DNA from: a virus
Lineage: Duplodnaviria; Caudoviricetes
Strand: one strand, 5' to 3'
DNA length: 64,000 bases
Virus record (IMG/VR): IMGVR_UViG_3300016725_000002
Coordinates: 1 to 64,000 of that record
A program made the position numbers and the translations under genes. A model generated the notes under the pieces. The model ran no database searches. It saw nothing but the letters and a program-made list of their open reading frames with translations, and was not told where the DNA came from. This document shows, one piece after another, positions 1-55,107 of this stretch (position 1 is its first letter; each line of letters starts with the position of its first letter).

Positions 1-1014
1 TGTCTCCCGTATATTAAATTCTCCATAAACTTTGCAGTCTTTTGGTATTTCTGTAATCTGTGTTTTTTGAATTAATAAATTTCCCATAACTGTTAATCTA
101 TTTGGTAAAGTAGTCGCATTAGTTTCAGAAAGATTTAAATTATGTTTAACAAGTAATCCATCAGGTAATGTTGGTGCTAATTTATTTGGATCATACTCTA
201 AATTATCTACTATGATTTTATCAGGTAAATCTTTATTGTTTTGTAAATAAATTGTATCTAATATTTGATAAGTATTCTTAGTCTTAAATATAATAAATCC
301 ATACCTCTCTAATTCACATTCTTTTAAATTTAATGAAATATATTTAGAATTAACAAAATCTAAAAAGTAAGGTCTATATTTTTCAGCTAATTGTGTATTA
401 TTCTTTCCTTGAACTTGAGGAATTGTTTTATAAGATGTAGAATATTCAACTGTAATATGAGGTATATTCTTTGAATCTCTTAAACTGTAAATACAAGTAT
501 ACCCATCTCTAACTCTTTTCCAATAATCAGCAACGCAATGATTCATATTAGCTCCCTCATAATCGAGAGCTCTTGCACTTAATAGTTTAGCCCAATACAT
601 TCCATCATCATATTTATGTATTATTTTTATCTTACCATCTTCAGATTTATGGCGATTTGCTAAATATTCATCCCAAGCTTTTACTTGTTTAAACACTTCT
701 TCAACTGCCATATTAGAAACATTATTTGTCCGAGTATTTAAATAATCTATTATATGGTCAAGATTAGTTACATCTGATACTATTACTTTGTAAATCTTTT
801 CTTTATCAAATTTTTCAATTAGCCATTTAGGAGCTTCTTTAGGTATACTATTTAATATATTTAATTCTGCTTTATTAATTAACCAATTTGTATAGTTAGA
901 CTTTACCCATTTAACTACGTTAGCATTGGCTGCACGTTTGACTATATTTTCTAAATAATCTTCAGTACGCTTTGTAAAGTATACGTTTCTGCTTGTTATT
1001 TCAATGTATTTCAT
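1..1014 (-). CDS. PcfJ-like domain + LRR-like repeat protein (runs off the window's left edge)
   Basis: Not in the ORF track. My translation from ATG 1014 gives MKYIEITSRNVYF...YEGANMNHCVADYW...IYSLRDSKNIPHITVEY...QVQGKNN, open to position 1. Paralog of the two adjacent ORFs. Confidence 0.85.
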   Translation of the reverse strand, partial: MKYIEITSRNVYFTKRTEDYLENIVKRAANANVVKWVKSNYTNWLINKAELNILNSIPKEAPKWLIEKFDKEKIYKVIVSDVTNLDHIIDYLNTRTNNVSNMAVEEVFKQVKAWDEYLANRHKSEDGKIKIIHKYDDGMYWAKLLSARALDYEGANMNHCVADYWKRVRDGYTCIYSLRDSKNIPHITVEYSTSYKTIPQVQGKNNTQLAEKYRPYFLDFVNSKYISLNLKECELERYGFIIFKTKNTYQILDTIYLQNNKDLPDKIIVDNLEYDPNKLAPTLPDGLLVKHNLNLSETNATTLPNRLTVMGNLLIQKTQITEIPKDCKVYGEFNIRET

Positions 1015-1021
1015 ATGGCCC

Positions 1022-3154
1022 CTATAATAATTTTATTGGAATAGTTTTTGGTGCATCAATTAGATAATCACAATCTCGTGTTGTTTCAATTATATTTATT
1101 TTTGTACCTCTATGAATCCATAATCGTTTATTCCTCATTTTTGTAACTACTAAACTATTAGTAACTAAATCTCTTGGGATTTCTGTTATATACCCACCTG
1201 AAATACTAATATAGTTATCAGCTACTAAACCTTTTGGCATATCTAAACCTGTATTAGTTAATGATAAGAATTTAACATGCATATTATCTGGTAACTCACA
1301 TACAGGACAATTACTAATATCAATTGTTGCACCTTCAAACTTATTAAAGGGTTTAAGAATTTCACTAAAAATAAGTTCTAATTTATTTACTTTTAATGTA
1401 TCAGGCATATAAATTTTAGAGTTATTAATAATTAATTGATTTGCTTTAAATGTACTTGGAAACGTAACATTATTTTTATAAAGAGATAAAATACTAACAG
1501 CAAGATCATTTGGAATTTGGTTAAGATTTTTACAAAAGGATATTTCTAATTCAGAAACTTTTAATTTTTTAGGTAGTTGTTTAATTGGAGCATTTTTTAT
1601 TCTAATTCTTTTACATGATAAATTATCGGGTAAGGTAGTTAACTCACAATCATGAGCCTTTAGTTGTTTAATCTTTGCTCCATTAGGAATTTCAAGTATT
1701 TTGGTATTAGAAATATCTAAATCCTCTATTTCTAAATCACTAGGTAATTTAGTTACATTTGTTAAACCAAGATCTAATCTTTTACATTTAATTTTATTAG
1801 GTAGTTGACTTACACTAGTTGAACTTAAATCTAAATCTTTTTTATTATCAATATCTAAGTTTAATTTAGTTATCTTACTTCCACTTAAATTTAAGTTACC
1901 ATCAACTTTAAAATCTTTAGGTATTTCTTCAATTGAAGTTACTGCTAAATCACAATCACCCTTAATTACAGTATTTTTACCAACAGAGGTACATTTACTA
2001 TATTTAAGTATTGCATTACCTAAAACTGTTAAGTTATCAGGAAGTGGTTCTTCATCATAATATGCAAAAAAGTTTCCTTTAATGGTAGTATTATTAGAAA
2101 TAGTACATTCTGATTCTCGTATATCTAAATGTTGATTAAATACCATATTTGGAGGGAATTTAATTTTTGTATCTCGTATAAGAACATTACCTTTTACTTG
2201 CACAGTATTAGGAAAATCATTAACTACACAACTATCAATAGTTAGATTTCCACCAACTTTTAAATTAGCAGGAAATGATTTAAATTTGCAACCCATAAGT
2301 ATTAAATTATGTTTTATAGTTAAATCATCAGGAAAAGTTAATTCATCATAATTGAAATCTATATCTAGTGAATCAATTACGATACCAGAAGGTAAATTAT
2401 TTATATTAAATAATTTTGTTTTTCCTTTAACTTTTATAAATATGTATCCTGAATCTTGAAGATTACTAGGTAAAATCTTTAAGGAAGTATTAACAAAATT
2501 TAGAAAGAGTTTGTCATATTTTAATGGTAATTTTGTATTTCCCTTAGCTCTAACCTGTACGATAGTTTTATTTGGAACTGAATATTCAACTGTAACATGA
2601 GGTATATTCTTCTTATCTCGTAAGCTGTAAATATTTGTATTACCAGAAGATACTTTAGTCCAATAACCGCCTACACAATGGCCCATATTATCACCTTCAT
2701 ATTTCAATGAAGGTTCGTTCAATAACTGAACCCATTTATACCCAGAAGAATATTCTTTTATTATTTTTATTTCACCATCTTTATTATTCTTTTTCTGTTT
2801 TAATTCTTCATCCCAAGCATCAACCTGCTTAAACACTTCAGTTACAGACATATTAGCAACATTATGTGTTAATGTATTGAGATAATCAATTACATGACTT
2901 AAATTATTTAAATTTGGGCGAGAAACTTCAAAAATGTCTTCCTTACCGAATTTATCAACTAACCATTTAGGTGAATTTTTAGGTAACTGACGCATTTTAA
3001 ACAATCTAGCTTTGTTTGTCAGCCAGCTACGATAATTGGATTTTATCCATTTAGCCACGTTGGCATTAGCTGCTCTATCTATCATTTCCTTTAAATATTC
3101 TTCAACGTCCGGATTAAAATAGACATTTCTTGAAAGTATTTCTATATATTTCAT
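1022..3154 (-). CDS. PcfJ-like domain + LRR/beta-solenoid repeat protein
   Basis: EGDNMGHCVGGY...IYSLRD...PHVTVEY...QVRAKGN PcfJ-type motif; C-terminal ~20-aa LPxxLxV/LxLxxT repeats. Confidence 0.85.
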   Translation of the reverse strand: MKYIEILSRNVYFNPDVEEYLKEMIDRAANANVAKWIKSNYRSWLTNKARLFKMRQLPKNSPKWLVDKFGKEDIFEVSRPNLNNLSHVIDYLNTLTHNVANMSVTEVFKQVDAWDEELKQKKNNKDGEIKIIKEYSSGYKWVQLLNEPSLKYEGDNMGHCVGGYWTKVSSGNTNIYSLRDKKNIPHVTVEYSVPNKTIVQVRAKGNTKLPLKYDKLFLNFVNTSLKILPSNLQDSGYIFIKVKGKTKLFNINNLPSGIVIDSLDIDFNYDELTFPDDLTIKHNLILMGCKFKSFPANLKVGGNLTIDSCVVNDFPNTVQVKGNVLIRDTKIKFPPNMVFNQHLDIRESECTISNNTTIKGNFFAYYDEEPLPDNLTVLGNAILKYSKCTSVGKNTVIKGDCDLAVTSIEEIPKDFKVDGNLNLSGSKITKLNLDIDNKKDLDLSSTSVSQLPNKIKCKRLDLGLTNVTKLPSDLEIEDLDISNTKILEIPNGAKIKQLKAHDCELTTLPDNLSCKRIRIKNAPIKQLPKKLKVSELEISFCKNLNQIPNDLAVSILSLYKNNVTFPSTFKANQLIINNSKIYMPDTLKVNKLELIFSEILKPFNKFEGATIDISNCPVCELPDNMHVKFLSLTNTGLDMPKGLVADNYISISGGYITEIPRDLVTNSLVVTKMRNKRLWIHRGTKINIIETTRDCDYLIDAPKTIPIKLL

Positions 3155-3162
3155 GCTGCTCC

Positions 3163-5325
3163 TTATACAATTTCGATTTTTACACTACTTAAATTTGTTA
3201 TTAAACTCATATAATCTTCATTTCTTACTCGTATAAGTTTAATCTTTACATCCTTAGGTATAGTTAATGGTTTAGTTAATTTAGTTAGATATAATAAATA
3301 AGCTTCCATATCATTTGGAATTTCTGTAATTGGAACATTTATTAAAACAATATTTTTCGCTTTTAAATTACTAGGTAACTTTTTTAAAGTTACCTTTTCT
3401 AATTCTAATGTAGTTAAGGATAAATCATTTGGTAATGAATTTAGTGTACTATAACGTATAATTACTGATTTACAATCAACTAAAATGTCAGGAGCTTTAG
3501 AAATTTTACAATTACTAATTGTAACTAATTTAGCAGATAAATTATTTGGTAATTTTAAATCAGTTAAATCTTCTAAGTTAAGTGTATGAGTTTTAAATGT
3601 GGTTGGAAATTCTATAGCACCTTCATATACTTGTAAGGATTTAACTTTTAAATCTTGCGGTATATGTGTAATTTTACATGATTCTATATATAACTCAGAT
3701 ACTTCTAATTCTTTTGGCAAAGTTTTCATAGGTAAATTTTTTAGTGTAATTCCTGCACATTTAATACCATCTGGTAATTTAGATAATTTACTGTTGCTAC
3801 ATAAAAGTTCTCTAAATTTAGTTTCATTAGATATTTCAGGAATTTTTGTATTATTTATACTTAATATATTAGTAGATAATTTTGGTAAAGTTGTAATAGG
3901 TGTATCTGAGACATTTAGACGTTTGCATGTAAGGTTATCAGGAAGTTGTTTAATATTAATACTTTGAAAATCTAAATTAGCATTTTTACCAAATTTTGGT
4001 TCAATTGTTTTTATTGAACCCCTATAAATGCTTAAAGTTCCAACTTTAAATGTACTAGGTAACACATTCACTTCTAACTCAGAAAATTCGCAGACTTTAG
4101 TTATTGTAACATTTTTACCTATTCTTTTTATTCTAGTATTAAAGTCTGCACAACCATTAACTGTTAAATTATCAGGTATAGATTCAACTTTTTTATTAGT
4201 TATAATTAAATCTCCATTAATTGTAACATTCTCTGATATAATCACATTGTATAAATCAGCCGTATTATAAGTTGCATAATTTGGAGGTATAACAATATTA
4301 TTTGACGGAGAACATATTATTTTAAGTAAACCCCGTACTATTAAATCTTTTGGAATTTCAGTAATTTTACAGAATTTAATTTTTAAATTTCCGTTAACAA
4401 CTAACTTATTAGGTAATTTAGTTATATTAATATTCTCAAGAATTAAATTATGTAAAACTGTCAAATTATCTGGTAGTATTAATTCTCTATCATTATCTTC
4501 ATTATCATTATCATCGTCATCCCATTCAGAAAAATTAATTGTATCAATAGTTGAATTTTCAGGTATATTATACATACTACATATTTCAGGTTTTCCATTT
4601 CTTGTTATAAAAGTATATCCAGAGTCTTCTACGCTACTTTTGTTAAGCTTAAAATAAGTATTAGCAAAATGCAAAAACATTTTATCATATTTTAAAGTTA
4701 GCTTTGTATTTCCTTTACCCCGAACCTGCTGTATTATATTTTTCTTCGGTTCATACTCAACTGTAACATGAGGTATATTCTTAGCATCGCGCAGACTATA
4801 AATAACTGTTTTACCAGATTTAACAGCATTCCAATAACCACCAACACAATGGTTCATTTTAGAACCTTCATATTTTAATGAACGCTCGTCAAGCAATTGA
4901 ACCCATTTATATCCATCAGAATATTCATGTATTACTTTTGTTTTTCCATCCGTAGATTCTTTTTGCTTCTTTAGTTTCTTATCCCAATCTTCTACTTGTT
5001 TAAACACTTCAGTTACAGACATATTAGAAACATTATCAGTACGAGTATTTAAATAATCTATTATATGACTTAATTTATTTAAATAATGAAGCGGAATAGT
5101 AAAAATTGGTTCCTTTTTATATTTGTCTTGCAACCATTTAGGTGCATCATTAGGTAATTGACTTAAAGGAAGAAGTTCAGCCTTGTTTGTTAACCAATTA
5201 CGATAATTAGAGGTTAGCCATTTAACAACATTAGAGTTATCACATTTTAACTTCATTTCATGAAGAAATTTTTCATTATCTTTAGAGAAATATACATTTC
5301 TCGCAGTTATTTCTACATATTTCAT
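3163..5325 (-). CDS. PcfJ-like domain + LRR/beta-solenoid repeat protein
   Basis: EGSKMNHCVGGY...IYSLRD...PHVTVEY motif; LPDNLTV-type repeats; GGGAG RBS. Confidence 0.85.
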   Translation of the reverse strand: MKYVEITARNVYFSKDNEKFLHEMKLKCDNSNVVKWLTSNYRNWLTNKAELLPLSQLPNDAPKWLQDKYKKEPIFTIPLHYLNKLSHIIDYLNTRTDNVSNMSVTEVFKQVEDWDKKLKKQKESTDGKTKVIHEYSDGYKWVQLLDERSLKYEGSKMNHCVGGYWNAVKSGKTVIYSLRDAKNIPHVTVEYEPKKNIIQQVRGKGNTKLTLKYDKMFLHFANTYFKLNKSSVEDSGYTFITRNGKPEICSMYNIPENSTIDTINFSEWDDDDNDNEDNDRELILPDNLTVLHNLILENINITKLPNKLVVNGNLKIKFCKITEIPKDLIVRGLLKIICSPSNNIVIPPNYATYNTADLYNVIISENVTINGDLIITNKKVESIPDNLTVNGCADFNTRIKRIGKNVTITKVCEFSELEVNVLPSTFKVGTLSIYRGSIKTIEPKFGKNANLDFQSINIKQLPDNLTCKRLNVSDTPITTLPKLSTNILSINNTKIPEISNETKFRELLCSNSKLSKLPDGIKCAGITLKNLPMKTLPKELEVSELYIESCKITHIPQDLKVKSLQVYEGAIEFPTTFKTHTLNLEDLTDLKLPNNLSAKLVTISNCKISKAPDILVDCKSVIIRYSTLNSLPNDLSLTTLELEKVTLKKLPSNLKAKNIVLINVPITEIPNDMEAYLLYLTKLTKPLTIPKDVKIKLIRVRNEDYMSLITNLSSVKIEIV

Positions 5326-7494: not shown

Positions 7495-7540
7495 AAAAAA
7501 GCAGGGTAGGTAAAGCATAGTTACTTTACCTACCCTGCTT
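7495..7540 (-). terminator. Rho-independent terminator after the H1-like gene
   Basis: 15-bp perfect stem GCAGGGTAGGTAAAG/CTTTACCTACCCTGC followed by T6 on the minus strand. Confidence 0.85.
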
Positions 7541-7567
7541 TACTGCTTTCGCGGCGCCCAGAGTGGA

Positions 7568-7975
7568 CTACTTCTTGGTGGTCTTTTTCTTGGCCGGGGC
7601 CTTCTTCGCAGGCTTCTTGGCGGCAGCAGGCTTCTTGGCGGCAGCAGGCTTCTTGGCGGCAGCAGGCTTCTTGGCCGCAGGTTTCTTAGCGGCAGGCTTC
7701 TTGGCAGCGGGCTTGGCGGGGTTCTTCGCTTCACCCTTGCCGCCGTCAACACGACCAGACGCGCCGTACAGCTTTTTGCGGGTCTTCCACGCCTTTTCAG
7801 CGCGCTTGGAGCGTTCGCTCTTGCTCATGCTTTTCGCGCCCTTTTTGGCGGCTTTGGACTTGGTCTTGTGTTCAGGAGATTTGGCGTTCTTCGCCTTGGT
7901 CTTCTTTTCCTTAGCCACATCGGCCTTCGTTTTCTTGACGGCCTTCTTCTTGGGAGCAGCTTTCTTTTCAGCCAT
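7568..7975 (-). CDS. histone H1-like (AAKKP-repeat, Hc1/AlgP-like composition) DNA-binding protein
   Basis: K/A/P-rich; KKPAA(A) repeats; GAGG RBS; GC content far above the flanks. Confidence 0.85.
   Translation of the reverse strand: MAEKKAAPKKKAVKKTKADVAKEKKTKAKNAKSPEHKTKSKAAKKGAKSMSKSERSKRAEKAWKTRKKLYGASGRVDGGKGEAKNPAKPAAKKPAAKKPAAKKPAAAKKPAAAKKPAAAKKPAKKAPAKKKTTKK
7608..7674. repeat. 18-nt tandem repeat GGCTTCTTGGCGGCAGCA (3+ copies) encoding AAAKKP
   Basis: Read directly from the sequence. Confidence 0.9.
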
Positions 7976-8091: not shown

Positions 8092-8589
8092 TTATGAATT
8101 TGAGTTAGAAAGTAATTTACTACTAAGCATAAGCAATTTATTTGCTTGATTTGGCTGCATTCCTGCTGCTCCGACCATAGAAGCGCATATTCCAGATAAT
8201 ATAAGCTTATTTGATTCTATAACATCTGTAGTTGTAGCAGCGTTTGATGCCACTGTCTGCATACGCTGTACAGCCCTTAATAAGAAAGAGTTCATATCAA
8301 CCTTAGTTGTATTACGGACGCTTTCTATAGTAGTTTTCTTTAGCTGTTTTCGTATCTTTTTAACTTGTTCTGGTGTTATTTTAAAGTTTTTATCTACTTT
8401 AACTATCTTATATAGAGAATCACTAGGTATTATATAGTATTCATCTAGTATATCTTGTACAAGTATATCTTCTTTTGTAATCTGTATAACAGTAACAACC
8501 TCATATTTATCTAATATTATATCAGGTAATATACATTTTGTATCTTTTAAAAGTTTTATACTTGTACCTATATTCATATTAATAACCAA
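8092..8589 (-). CDS. hypothetical protein
   Basis: 165-aa ORF overlapping the upstream stop. Confidence 0.65.
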   Translation of the reverse strand: MVINMNIGTSIKLLKDTKCILPDIILDKYEVVTVIQITKEDILVQDILDEYYIIPSDSLYKIVKVDKNFKITPEQVKKIRKQLKKTTIESVRNTTKVDMNSFLLRAVQRMQTVASNAATTTDVIESNKLILSGICASMVGAAGMQPNQANKLLMLSSKLLSNSNS

Positions 8590-9058
8590 AGGTGAAGATC
8601 ACACTGATACCTTTGGAATCCTCACCTAAGTTTTCTATACTAACAAATAAGTTATTAGGTACTTGGTTCATATCATGATAAAAGAATAAAGGTTCTTGAG
8701 ATACATAACTAGAAATTTCATTTCCAAATTCTTGCTGTATAATTATATTACGAGGATGTGGATTTTTATTATCGGCTTTATATACATCCTGTTCACACAA
8801 AGTTACTTTAACTTTACTACTAAATGATCTAACACGAACCGCACATAATGTACCTTGCATATCTATAGGAAGAGGAATAGAATATACACTTTCACCAGCA
8901 GCAAGATTAACAAATACTTCTAGATGTGAACGTCTATAGTCACATGAAGTTAATCCTAAATTTTTTACCTGCCAATTTTTATTTGTAGTAGCATTGGATT
9001 CAGTATAAGAAGAAGTAGGAGTTGCTGGTTGATTAAATTTATTGTCCATTGTTCCCAT
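8579..9058 (-). CDS. hypothetical beta-rich protein
   Basis: AAGGAG RBS; coupled to the o-spanin gene. Confidence 0.7.
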   Translation of the reverse strand: MGTMDNKFNQPATPTSSYTESNATTNKNWQVKNLGLTSCDYRRSHLEVFVNLAAGESVYSIPLPIDMQGTLCAVRVRSFSSKVKVTLCEQDVYKADNKNPHPRNIIIQQEFGNEISSYVSQEPLFFYHDMNQVPNNLFVSIENLGEDSKGISVIFTFGY

Positions 9059-9320
9059 TAGTTTTCTCCTTTGGTTCAGCTTGTATATCGTATTTATCCA
9101 AAGCTCTATTTAGCAAAGCATTATTATCTTTTAATCTAATAATATTTTCAGTTAATCTATCGACATTATCATTGGAACCTATATGCTGATTTGGGTCTAG
9201 TTCAAGAAGATTGGGTGGGCCGGGTCTTTGAATTTTGTGTGTGCCATACGATGGATAATACTTTACATTTGAACAACCAAATAAACTACTTAGTATTAGG
9301 AGAAGAAGCAGGTTTCGCAT
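9039..9320 (-). CDS. o-spanin (Rz1-like lipoprotein)
   Basis: Signal peptide with lipobox SLFG-C, Pro-rich segment and C-terminal helix; overlaps the 3' end of the i-spanin candidate. Confidence 0.75.
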   Translation of the reverse strand: MRNLLLLLILSSLFGCSNVKYYPSYGTHKIQRPGPPNLLELDPNQHIGSNDNVDRLTENIIRLKDNNALLNRALDKYDIQAEPKEKTNGNNGQ

Positions 9321-9711
9321 TGTTTAGCTCCTTATTTATTTCCTGAATATAACGTGTACTTGTTTCCATATCAACTACAGTTGGTTCGGAAGACACTGGG
9401 ACAGATTTAGCATTACGGTATCTGTCTACACGTTTATCACAATCACTGCGTATAGTTTCAACTTTAGTATTTAATGTTTTTACATCATTTTCATATGAAG
9501 TAATTATTCCATCCGTTTTTAATTTAAAATCATTTGTATCTACAACAACTTTTTCTAATTGAGATTTAGCATCAGCTAAACTAGCAGTTAAATCTTTAAT
9601 TTCTCCAAGACTATTATGATATAGCCAACCAACAACACCTAAAGCTACAAGTAAGCCTACTACAATATAATTTTTAAAATTAGTAAATAAAGTGGAAACA
9701 AATGAAAACAT
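9286..9711 (-). CDS. i-spanin (Rz-like)
   Basis: Single N-terminal TM (YIVVGLLVALGVVGWLY) followed by a coiled coil, directly upstream of and overlapping the lipoprotein gene. Confidence 0.75.
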   Translation of the reverse strand: MFSFVSTLFTNFKNYIVVGLLVALGVVGWLYHNSLGEIKDLTASLADAKSQLEKVVVDTNDFKLKTDGIITSYENDVKTLNTKVETIRSDCDKRVDRYRNAKSVPVSSEPTVVDMETSTRYIQEINKELNNAKPASSPNTK

Positions 9712-10002
9712 TTATTCACCATCAGATTTAAAGAAATTATATATTCCTGTACAGACTTTACCAACAGTAGGAGCAATTAAATTTATAGTATCAATAATAG
9801 AAGATATTTTGCTATCATTTTTTGCTTTCACTGCTTCCTTTAATTCATCAATTGCAGCTAAAACTTGCTTATTATCTGTTAACCCTTTTACTTTATCAAG
9901 GTCATTAAGAGTTTTATTAATTACATTATTATCATTGTAAGATATTTTAGATTCTATATTTGTATCTCTACCCGAAGAAATACTTCCTATATGAGTTGTC
10001 AT
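9712..10002 (-). CDS. small helical protein with N-terminal amyloid-like motif (lysis cassette)
   Basis: GAAGGAG RBS; N-terminal THIGSISSGRDTNI; amphipathic C-terminal helices; stop abuts the spanin ATG. Confidence 0.75.
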   Translation of the reverse strand: MTTHIGSISSGRDTNIESKISYNDNNVINKTLNDLDKVKGLTDNKQVLAAIDELKEAVKAKNDSKISSIIDTINLIAPTVGKVCTGIYNFFKSDGE

Positions 10003-10016
10003 GGTTTGGCTCCTTC

Positions 10017-10511
10017 TTATTTTATATTTGTATCTTTATCAGATTTAACACTACCAACAACAGTAATATTATTAGGATTATTATATTTTATATCTTTTAA
10101 TGACGATAAAATTTCATTAATCGCAGCGATATTTTCATTATCTGAAGAGTTCATACATATTAGAGTTGTGCAAAGTCTTTCAAGTACATGAGAAATAACT
10201 TTTAAACTGTTTGTAGTATCAGCGACTACAGGATCAAGTCCAAATAATTTTAATTTTATTTCAGAACATAATTGATAGATATTAGCAACTACCTTTACAA
10301 ATTTTTCCTGTTTCTCAATTAATTGTTTTTGGTAGGTTATTTTTTCTTGTTCAAGACGAATTTTTTCTTGTTCAAGTTGACACCTATTATTTTCAATACG
10401 AATTTTCTTTTCTTGAGCCGCTAATAATCGTGCAATCATTTCCTGAGTACCTTGCAGTGATTCAGGAAATGAAACAGACTCCATATCTTTATCTTCGTCT
10501 TGGTTACTCAT
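10017..10511 (-). CDS. coiled-coil protein with C-terminal amyloid-like motif
   Basis: LEQEKI repeats; ends NITVVGSVKSDKDTNIK. ATG 10511 (GGAAGG RBS) preferred over TTG 10523. Confidence 0.75.
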   Translation of the reverse strand: MSNQDEDKDMESVSFPESLQGTQEMIARLLAAQEKKIRIENNRCQLEQEKIRLEQEKITYQKQLIEKQEKFVKVVANIYQLCSEIKLKLFGLDPVVADTTNSLKVISHVLERLCTTLICMNSSDNENIAAINEILSSLKDIKYNNPNNITVVGSVKSDKDTNIK

Positions 10512-10541: not shown

Positions 10542-11567
10542 TTATTTTGAAGCTACTTTCATTTGCTTTAATTGTTTAAAATTTCGTATTTCTCTATCAT
10601 ATAATTGTTGAGATGCTTGATTTTCTATTTCCATAAATTTTAATAATGCCGTATGCATTTCTTTTACTTCCTTACGGGTTTGTTCTGATTGTTCTAAATT
10701 TAAATGAATAGTTAATATGAAGTTAACAATATTTGAAATAAGCTGAATTATATTTTTATCTACAGTTTTGATTAAATCCGGATTATAAATACTAAAACTT
10801 ATTATTCCATATACATCATTTTTATAAAATATTGGGGCTATTATTTTAGCAACAACATTAGTTGTTACCCATCTATTTTTTAATACTGGATTCTTAATAT
10901 TATCTTGATATAAAATATAATAAGGATAATCTACAATATATGGTTTGTATTCATCATATGAAATAATTGCACCAACATCCTGGGGATAATCTACATTCTC
11001 TTTCCAAAGGGAAGTTAATTTTAATTCGGTATCAGATATTTTCCTATAAAAGCATGCGCAGTTAGAATGTAGAACTTTAGCTGTAAATTTTAGAACTGTT
11101 TCAATATCAATTGATAATGTAGTTTTGGACATGTAACTATCAAATATTTGAATTAAACTAGTTAACCTTTGTTCAGATGATTCACCTTCATTATTTAATT
11201 TAGGTGAACCTATACAGTACCAATTTCCATCATTGTTTAAAAATATGGCACATTCTAAATATCTAGTTTTTGCATTATTCAAATATAATTTGGGAATATA
11301 TTTATATTGTTTTATTTTAAATAAATCTAGTGTTTTATTATGCAATACTATATTTTTAAGCACTGCTTCTTTTAGAAAATCTTTAGCTAATTTGTTTTTA
11401 TATAATATTTTCATATTAGAGTTAAATGTAAAAATAATAAAAGGAAATGAATCTAATAAAGATTTCTGTAAATTAATATATTTAAAGGAGTTTTTGGTTT
11501 TGACTGAAACAATTAAGATTGAAACTAATAGTAGTAAAAATAATATACGAATGTCTGATATAATCAT
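10542..11567 (-). CDS. membrane-anchored PAS + GAF sensor-like protein with no output domain
   Basis: N-terminal TM; LLDSFPFIIFTFN...ILYKNKLA is PAS-like; IETVL...IIAPIFYKNDVYGIISF...IIQLISNIV is GAF-like; C-terminal coiled coil. Confidence 0.65.
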   Translation of the reverse strand: MIISDIRILFLLLLVSILIVSVKTKNSFKYINLQKSLLDSFPFIIFTFNSNMKILYKNKLAKDFLKEAVLKNIVLHNKTLDLFKIKQYKYIPKLYLNNAKTRYLECAIFLNNDGNWYCIGSPKLNNEGESSEQRLTSLIQIFDSYMSKTTLSIDIETVLKFTAKVLHSNCACFYRKISDTELKLTSLWKENVDYPQDVGAIISYDEYKPYIVDYPYYILYQDNIKNPVLKNRWVTTNVVAKIIAPIFYKNDVYGIISFSIYNPDLIKTVDKNIIQLISNIVNFILTIHLNLEQSEQTRKEVKEMHTALLKFMEIENQASQQLYDREIRNFKQLKQMKVASK

Positions 11568-22739: not shown

Positions 22740-22901
22740 TTAACTTGATTTAATCCAAAGGTATGCAGCACCTACAGCACTTAGAATCAATATTCCGATA
22801 GCACTTGCGGCTATAATCAAAGTTTGAAATAAATATCTATCTAACTTTTTATAAAACCGTTTAATTTCTTCAAATTCCTCTGAGTTATTAGTCACTGGCA
22901 T
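22740..22901 (-). CDS. small single-TM membrane protein (53 aa)
   Basis: Own translation MPVTNNSEEFEEIKRFYKKLDRYLFQTLIIAASAIGILILSAVGAAYLWIKSS; overlaps the gp25-like stop. Confidence 0.55.
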   Translation of the reverse strand: MPVTNNSEEFEEIKRFYKKLDRYLFQTLIIAASAIGILILSAVGAAYLWIKSS

Positions 22902-55015: not shown

Positions 55016-55107
55016 AAGTTGAAGGGGAGTTTCCTCCCCTTCTATATCCCACGTTGAAGGAGCCAAACAACGTGGGGAAATTGTTTATATCGTTCAAATA
55101 TAAACTG
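54981..55107 (-). ncRNA. putative trans-acting sRNA (stacked hairpins, anti-SD loop)
   Basis: CAGTTTA motif at 55101-55107; 9-bp stem with loop UUUGGCUCCUU; 9-bp stem with GAAA tetraloop; terminator. Confidence 0.55.

Follow-up and report, generated by a model that had tools for sequence, protein, structure and literature searches.

A conserved motif shared end to start by two adjacent, spanin-linked genes of a giant phage: a possible amyloid-like pair

To our knowledge, all known amyloid-signalling systems (HET-S/NWD2, Bell/NLR and Bab/Agp) were discovered via paired terminal motifs in adjacent genes, and every one of them serves host cell death or immunity, with a large sensor at its core. 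The Bab/Agp pair, which carries the BASS11 motif and functions in abortive infection in E. coli, is encoded by adjacent genes, with the 109-amino acid helical protein Bab bearing a C-terminal motif of ~20 residues and its partner bearing the motif at residues 2-25 (10.1101/2024.11.07.622273). Agp is a 1094-amino acid TPR-GreA/B-PIN sensor, and Bab possesses a domain of Bell type that has a hydrophobic helix at its N-terminus; upon phage infection, templating sets in and the membrane is damaged (10.1101/2024.11.07.622273). The BASS11 consensus has four glycines, a central conserved asparagine and an I-G-S-V start (10.1101/2024.11.07.622273). Described here are two small adjacent genes, gpA and gpB, found in the first 64 kb (hereafter the window) of the 161,660-bp IMG/VR viral contig IMGVR_UViG_3300016725_000002. 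Judging from their sequences and those of their relatives, gpA and gpB form a cognate two-protein module joined by a shared motif of ~19 residues, which is predicted to be strand-forming.

The open reading frames (ORFs) and both peptide strings to which a sequence-only reading of the window had drawn attention are present, on the minus strand. The C-terminus of gpA (...KYNNPNNITVVGSVKSDKDTNIK) and the N-terminus of gpB (MTTHIGSISSGRDTNIESKISYNDNNVINK) can be matched over 15 residues (TVVGSVKSDKDTNIK in gpA, MTTHIGSISSGRDTNIE in gpB), 8 of which are identical, with conservative V/I and K/R changes in addition, as that reading had stated. When the C-terminal 30 amino acids of every gene product in the contig were scored, ungapped and with BLOSUM62, against the N-terminal 30 of the following same-strand gene, the gpA-gpB score of 45 was the highest of 177 adjacent pairs (next best 33; mean 16.4, standard deviation 4.7). 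Random pairings of C-termini with N-termini gave P ~3e-5 to 1e-4 for this score, and shuffles preserving the N/S/K/I-rich composition of both termini gave P ~2e-4 to 1e-3. By themselves these values are too weak for a scan of very many windows, and a chance resemblance between two low-complexity termini of an AT-rich genome could draw on them, as composition-matched shuffles reach the score about once per 1,000-5,000 trials. One detail of the sequence-only reading did not hold. The DNA had been described as more diverged than the protein, which is wrong, with 32 of the 45 nucleotides of the match identical, including a 12-nt exact run (GATACAAATATA). A resemblance between the flanks NNPNNI and NDNNVIN was considered as well and rejected, as these are N-rich variable linkers that are not conserved in relatives.

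Word-indexed searches yielded close relatives only (80-99% identity), and neither related-locus searches in viral and metagenome collections nor blastn and tblastn searches against deposited phages found any. An exhaustive HMMER search with a gpA profile, in contrast to these, identified three distant homologues (P0007, P0008, P0009; E-values 4e-10 to 2e-6; 28-33% identity), each with a gpB homologue of 86-98 amino acids immediately downstream and with the motif kept in both genes. The distant contigs share a gene order of baseplate, fibres, a protein of ~320-367 amino acids with a transmembrane (TM) anchor (p341 in the window), gpA, the gene of 86-98 amino acids, an i-spanin-like and an o-spanin-like gene. 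Across the four lineages the spacing between gpA and gpB ranges from -8 to +14 nt. The motif reads ...IKVVGSVNAGNDANIESNIKK..., ...KVIGSVNAERDANIDSN... and ...KIIGSINAEQDVNVESNV... in the three distant gpA homologues, while the N-termini of the three downstream gpB homologues are MGTFYGNISGGRDINIESNV, MSNLHIGNITSGRDTNIQSNV and MSNLNIGNINSGRDTNVQSNV. In full it occupies 19 columns, with the gpA-side form hhGS[VI]xAxxDxN[IV]xSN[VI] and the gpB-side form hhG[SN]IxxGRDxN[IV]xSN[VI].

When the gpA and gpB family alignments were compared with hhalign, the 19-column motif was the sole match (P=2.4e-6). A hidden Markov model (HMM) built from the gpA-side motifs alone retrieved all five gpB N-termini as its next-best matches among 3,029 six-frame ORFs (E-values 1.8e-5 to 4e-3), and one built from the gpB-side motifs retrieved the three distant gpA motifs (E-values 7e-4 to 8e-3). 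These one-sided searches found no third copy in the 161-kb contig or the related loci. Between lineages, the gpB motif has 61-72% identity versus 17-31% for the remainder of the protein, and the gpA motif 31-56% versus 27-31%. Co-conservation of the motif in homologous gene pairs, which had been named as a check, was thus found in all four lineages, and absence of the motif from homologues was not seen. As the motif is kept on both sides in three further lineages at ~30% identity, the match is not due to chance; with reciprocal detection and the hhalign result added, that explanation is effectively refuted. The sequence evidence instead identifies the shared motif as a conserved and selected feature of a cognate adjacent gene pair.

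The ATG start of gpA is consistent with homologues P0003 and P0004. Its C-terminal tail has a predicted local distance difference test score (pLDDT) of <50 in the AlphaFold2 (AF2) model, and is invariant among close relatives. Over the last 28 gpA codons, the window and relative L002 differ by 7 synonymous and 0 non-synonymous changes, as against 51 and 22 over the whole gene. The tail is under purifying selection, even though its AF2 model is of low confidence. A proline-containing linker precedes the motif (NNPNNI in the window, QIPVPQI in relatives). Against PDB and BFVD, the gpA model had no Foldseek match at E <= 0.001, generic helical bundles being all that came up, and the ESM Atlas offered no usable gpA match.

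With gpB, the linker after the motif is Asn/Gly-rich and its length varies between homologues. The amphipathic C-terminus ascribed to the protein by the sequence-only reading was borne out, as a conserved, small-residue-rich helix ends gpB. This helix has a hydrophobic moment of ~0.5 and a Kyte-Doolittle 19-residue maximum of 0.6-1.5, and is a candidate membrane-binding segment. Maxima by the same measure are 1.13 for gpA and 1.24 for gpB (0.6-1.5 in homologues), compared to a TM threshold of 1.6. There is no signal peptide or TM segment in gpA or gpB, and both are therefore cytoplasmic. The ESM Atlas model of gpB is helical (pLDDT 0.66), with unnamed small proteins as the nearest Atlas clusters (0.90-0.91).

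A split-gene or readthrough origin of gpA/gpB was also considered and ruled out. The stop codon and ribosome-binding site between them are conserved and their frames differ in locus L012; these are therefore two genes. It is worth mentioning that the gpB ribosome-binding site (window positions 10004-10016) forms a 13-nt perfect complement with an intergenic hairpin loop at positions 55056-55068. In all, 292 exact 13-mer pairs of this inverted kind occur in the window, and the target differs in the closest relatives (GAAGGAGCAAAC in L003, AAAGGAGTGGGC in L002); this complement is likely due to chance.

The motif is composed of N (17%), I (13.5%), S (13%), V (10%) and G (10%), with L and P each at 1.4% or less, and polar and aliphatic residues alternate around its conserved Gly, Asp and Asn. 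Enrichment for N/G/V/I with depletion of L/P is the bias reported for BASS motifs (10.1101/2020.01.06.895854), and the composition was counted for an amyloid-like reading. A back-translated pattern of the gpB motif gave 0 viral, 7 genome (185,579 species genomes, 596 Gb) and 8 metagenome matches, all at chance level, internal and none at a protein terminus. On this sequence pattern, the motif does not appear to be a widespread bacterial terminal motif. Several of these chance matches fall within proteins of beta-helix fold, among them hexapeptide transferases in which the string reads GRDVNIQSNV (L017, L022), which suggests that the motif may be of the beta-solenoid-rung type. At L017:3024-3067 and L022:13409-13452, archaeal/bacterial hexapeptide-repeat (left-handed beta-helix) transferases contain G..[VL]IGRDVNIQSNVY[IL]P, nearly the gpB motif. 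The rung of a left-handed beta-helix has 18 residues, close to the 19 of the motif, and G..[IV]..GRD.N[IV].SN[IV] recurs in such transferases, a likeness to beta-solenoids that include the HET-s solenoid. However, gpA and gpB possess one rung each, have no Hexapep Pfam match and show a periodicity that is only partly hexad. Complex prediction for gpA with gpB (alignments A2 and A1) gave an ipSAE interface score of 0.00 in two runs without controls and counts neither way.

The genome scan also bears on the idea of a counter-defence decoy, where gpA and gpB would imitate an amyloid-signalling motif of the host and thereby cap or divert an abortive-infection pathway of the latter. Viral RHIM proteins act as such decoys in animals. 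Amyloid-based abortive infection exists in bacteria (10.1101/2024.11.07.622273) and the motif composition is BASS-like, but the 185,579 species genomes held no bacterial N- or C-terminal motif of the gpB type, only the ~7 chance-level internal matches. Given also the late-operon placement and the presence of two cognate copies, which a decoy does not need, this idea is barely credible.

Searches of Pfam, PHROGs, NCBIfam and PADLOC with gpA, gpB, p341 and the distant homologues gave sub-threshold noise only, the matches to Goodbye (E-value 0.01), EAD11 (E-value 0.04) and Atlas TCAD2 (0.86) being at chance level, and PDB sequence and profile searches gave nothing for gpA or gpB. It is in layout that the pair resembles described systems. 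A gapless motif of at least 15 residues in adjacent, collinear, near-abutting genes is the discovery criterion for amyloid-signalling pairs, and the gpA/gpB layout matches it, the motif being shared between a C-terminal region and an N-terminus, conserved, outside globular domains and next to flexible linkers. As with Bell/NLR pairs (BASS1-10; 10.1101/2020.01.06.895854) and HET-S/NWD2 (HRAM, sigma and PP motifs), the upstream C-terminus and downstream N-terminus share a gapless, N/G/V/I-rich, L/P-poor motif with Pro-rich or low-complexity linkers, the genes are ~0-14 nt apart, and nucleation of the fold is ascribed, as a proposal, to a partner that oligomerises. Unlike them, gpA and gpB have no NB-ARC/NACHT NTPase or Bell/HeLo domain, and the motif has 19 residues with two conserved Gly. 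Further differences are that the gpB motif is absent from bacterial protein termini in the 596-Gb scan and that no within-pair covariation was detected among the four lineages.

With Bab/Agp, its closest counterpart, the locus has in common adjacent collinear genes, a small helical protein, a shared motif of ~20 amino acids and a proposed membrane-targeting helix as output. By eye, which is the only way this stretch was compared, the I-G-S-V (I87-G88-S89-V90) and conserved Asn of BASS11 correspond to VVGSV / HIGSI and the invariant N here. There are differences, as gpA and gpB have no TPR-GreA/B-PIN or Bell domain, the small effector-like gpB has its motif at the N-terminus, and the genes are encoded in the late operon of a lytic-type giant phage, not in a defence island. 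The sequence-only reading had called this arrangement the hallmark of an amyloid-signalling pair; the layout, linkers and composition do agree with this, but an NLR/STAND sensor and a Bell/HeLo domain are lacking and the polarity is inverted. The gpB homologues (86-98 amino acids, helical) have no NTPase or repeat domains of an oligomerising receptor, and in place of an effector domain (Bell/HeLo or an enzymatic death domain) gpB has its C-terminal amphipathic helix. With no oligomerising domain in gpB, the coiled coil of gpA would have to supply oligomerisation, an inverted arrangement.

Analogy with these systems and the sequence features of the motif suggest an amyloid-like assembly, stacked and cooperative, that oligomeric gpA nucleates and that acts on gpB, to which a probability of roughly 40% is given. 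The gpA protein would oligomerise via its 70-residue coiled-coil helix, clustering several copies of the motif, and the clustered motifs would fold cooperatively into a stacked beta-arch with one beta-solenoid-like rung per motif. This stack could then recruit and template the N-terminal motif of gpB, and the resulting concentration of gpB may free the amphipathic helix at its C-terminus or align it on the cytoplasmic membrane's inner face.

A number of observations weigh against such an assembly. Searches of Pfam, PHROGs, NCBIfam and PADLOC found no STAND/NLR, TPR, Bell, HeLo or other amyloid-signalling domain, and the polarity is opposite to that of known pairs, in which the motif is C-terminal in the small effector. 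In the distant lineages the gpA motif is not strictly terminal, being followed by a variable acidic tail of 20-40 amino acids, and the hydrophobicity of the gpB C-terminal helix is under the TM threshold. The motif is fairly charged (K, D, R), and an in-register stack would bring like charges together at two positions. Cognate copies of the motif are no more alike than shuffled pairings (cognate-pair sum 142 versus a permutation mean of 136.5, with 4 of 24 permutations as high, four lineages only), the one suggestive co-change being N-V on both sides in L013 versus N-I elsewhere. Moreover, conservation of the same side across lineages is greater than the similarity between sides, with gpB keeping GRD and gpA keeping GS[VI]xA.

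The last three of these points are those expected of a finite, static hetero-complex, where the motifs pair as complementary beta-strands or hairpins (beta-augmentation) at fixed stoichiometry, with no templating, switch or amyloid and with a role in lysis or elsewhere. A private signature per side (GRD in gpB; GS[VI]xA..D in gpA) is what would be expected of two halves of one interface, no cognate covariation was seen, and the charged residues are ill-suited to long in-register stacks. However, the two sides agree in their 19-column register and in the key residues (G, D, N, [IV], S, N), which is more typical of like-on-like stacking, and the linkers and terminal placement resemble signalling motifs; a static complex is considered somewhat unlikely. 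Overall, pairing of motif with motif, whether in a stacked assembly or in a finite static complex, is favoured over other readings.

The contig has a completeness of 59% (CheckV), from which it is a piece of a giant phage, with a GC content of ~29% and nearly all genes on the minus strand. The clade carrying gpA/gpB consists of rare, AT-rich, spanin-bearing giant phages infecting Gram-negative bacteria. In operon direction, the gene order is a Tail_P2_I baseplate gene, three fibre-like genes, p341, gpA, gpB, i-spanin and o-spanin (Table 1), and the block from p341 to o-spanin is tight and kept in all four lineages. The start of the i-spanin gene abuts the gpB stop codon (TAAATG). Both features of a two-component spanin, an i-spanin with an N-terminal TM segment and an overlapping lipoprotein with a lipobox Cys, are found in the four lineages.

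Table 1. Location of gpA, gpB, their motifs and surrounding features in the window.
Feature	Position	Strand	Description	Support and conservation
Intrinsic terminator	7498..7541	-	Strong, perfect 20-bp stem; closes the long late operon holding gpA/gpB	
o-spanin	9039..9320	-	Lipoprotein, lipobox LFGC; overlaps end of i-spanin gene	Lipobox and DKYEIQ C-terminal block kept in 4 lineages
i-spanin	9286..9711	-	N-terminal TM and coiled coil	phrog_739 Rz-like, E=4.6e-5; architecture kept in 4 lineages
gpB	9712..10002	-	96 amino acids: N-terminal motif, variable Asn-rich linker, helical hairpin, C-terminal amphipathic helix	Homologues P0001, P0002, P0010-P0012
gpB C-terminal amphipathic helix	9724..9786	-	Small-residue- and Lys-rich, LIAPTVGKVCTGIYNFFKS; a relative has LGSSAATLGKVVFGLVKVFL	Conserved
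gpB-side motif	9940..9996	-	THIGSISSGRDTNIESKIS, residues 3-21	Most conserved segment of family; G6, G11, R12, D13, N15, S18 invariant
gpA-gpB spacer	10003..10016	-	14 nt; Shine-Dalgarno GAAGGAG 7 nt before gpB ATG	Stop codon and ribosome-binding site kept in L002-L004
gpA	10017..10511	-	164 amino acids: acidic N-terminus, long helix 19-90, helices 99-120 and 125-143, low-confidence tail 143-164 with motif	AF2 model
gpA-side motif	10020..10064	-	TVVGSVKSDKDTNIK, residues 150-164; stops after N-I-K	Shortened version of the 19-residue motif of relatives
p341	10542..11567	-	341 amino acids: N-terminal TM anchor then K/R, PAS/GAF-like body, second hydrophobic stretch, C-terminal long coiled-coil-like helix	

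This setting allows for gpA and gpB being consecutive virion or assembly proteins, with a trimeric coiled-coil gpA joined head-to-tail to gpB through a shared beta-helix-like rung, as a joint in a thin fibre or whisker comparable to the joints of tail fibres made of several proteins. The long gpA coiled coil, the likeness of the motif to beta-helix rungs and the location in a late operon after the baseplate gene and three fibre-like genes would suit such a joint. Yet the TM-anchored p341 stands between the fibre genes and gpA/gpB, translational coupling links the pair to the spanins, the C-terminal helix of gpB is amphipathic and of membrane type, and there is no PHROG or Pfam structural match for either protein. 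A fibre joint is therefore held to be clearly improbable.

Homologues of p341 (320-367 amino acids) are found at L010:3938-5041, L012:718-1683 and L013:4030-4998. The K/R residues after its TM anchor place the bulk of the protein in the cytoplasm. By eye the body resembles PAS then GAF (LDSLPFVIF..N.K..YKN..A and ..KIIAPI.Y.N.VYGI.SFSI), with no output domain; the only outside support for this likeness is a weak PDB profile match to the GAF protein 3p01 (E-value 0.03), as Pfam finds nothing for p341 and searches of the contig with GAF, GAF_2 and PAS_9 were negative. Its AF2 model is unusable (pLDDT 36.6). p341 may be a sensor or holin-like partner of gpA/gpB. It could also be the target of a shared docking peptide, with gpA and gpB each binding independently to one third partner (p341, the cytoplasmic end of the i-spanin or a host protein), for which they would compete or be co-recruited. 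The two motif copies per genome, located on disordered termini, and the conservation of p341 alongside fit with this, but 19 conserved residues of alternating hydrophobic and polar character are long for a linear docking motif, and the adjacency and end-to-start layout are left unexplained; it is regarded as highly improbable.

With gpA/gpB co-translated with an upstream membrane-anchored, sensor-like p341 and with downstream spanins, the likeliest role of the pair would be to set or trigger the membrane step of lysis. The site next to the spanins in a late operon, and the small size of proteins whose place of action would be the cytoplasmic membrane, recall holin/antiholin timing (lambda S105/S107; T4 T/RI/RIII). 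In T4, the holin gene likewise comes after those for the tail fibres, and its product T combines one TM segment with a large soluble domain, as does p341. As the sequence-only reading had observed, there is no canonical holin by the spanins, with no classic small multi-TM holin in the cassette of any of the four lineages. In contrast to the lambda and T4 holins, gpA and gpB do not have the TM segment, at least one, that a small cassette protein needs to count as a holin, and there is no endolysin nearby. No holin or antiholin PHROG or Pfam match was obtained for gpA or gpB, and no holin PHROG is matched by the small TM proteins encoded in other parts of the contig. Candidates among the latter are at positions 22740-22901, 134636-134950, 149218-149894 and 158800-159117.

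The sequence-only reading had gone further, proposing an amyloid-triggered holin substitute. In a fuller form of this idea, p341 possibly controls gpA, and beta-assembly of gpB would insert its amphipathic helix and so perform the holin or holin-trigger job in the lysis clock. On analogy this is conceivable and still unlikely. As first put forward, the idea overlooks the conserved, TM-anchored p341 directly upstream and the 41% of the genome that is missing. The link to lysis is one of synteny only, and the long late operon concerned includes baseplate and fibre genes as well. The endolysin families PF00959, PF01510, PF01464 and PF13539 are absent from the 161-kb fragment; a PF05838 search was negative there too but is uninformative, being equally negative in every control genome. 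Either the lysis enzymes are novel, or they lie in the missing 41%. No endolysin is in the cassette, and the label of lysis cassette given to these genes derives from the spanins and from tight translational coupling.

Directly after o-spanin lies a gene for a beta-rich protein of 159 amino acids (p159; window 8579-9058, minus strand; L012:3112-3597; L013:6403-6885). It is the best conserved gene of the neighbourhood, with 44-46% identity in distant lineages versus ~30% for gpA, gpB and p341. No family or PDB match was obtained for p159, which could be an unrecognised lysis or structural component. In L012 the p159 homologue is followed by three tandem paralogues of 138, 133 and 135 amino acids (L012:3599-4857), all starting MDK[NS]IEL[IV]VK, where the window has instead a single unrelated gene of 161-165 amino acids. 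The last gene of the late operon before the terminator (7568-7975, minus strand) codes for an extremely basic protein of 135 amino acids with AKKPAA(A)KKPAA repeats, resembling a histone H1 or AlgP-like tail.

The locus presents the signature of an amyloid pair in two tiny proteins that have no match to a library family, by the spanins, and with neither a sensor NTPase nor a recognisable holin. If the amyloid-like reading is true, this would be the first virus-encoded amyloid-signalling pair that serves the programme of the virus itself, not host defence. Should the motif template, phages would own a minimal switch and a new way of timing membrane disruption, and the pair would provide a very small two-part experimental system of ~260 amino acids in total. 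If the motif is a static interface only, it would still be a clean, testable and conserved protein-protein joint in otherwise unannotatable genes of giant phages.

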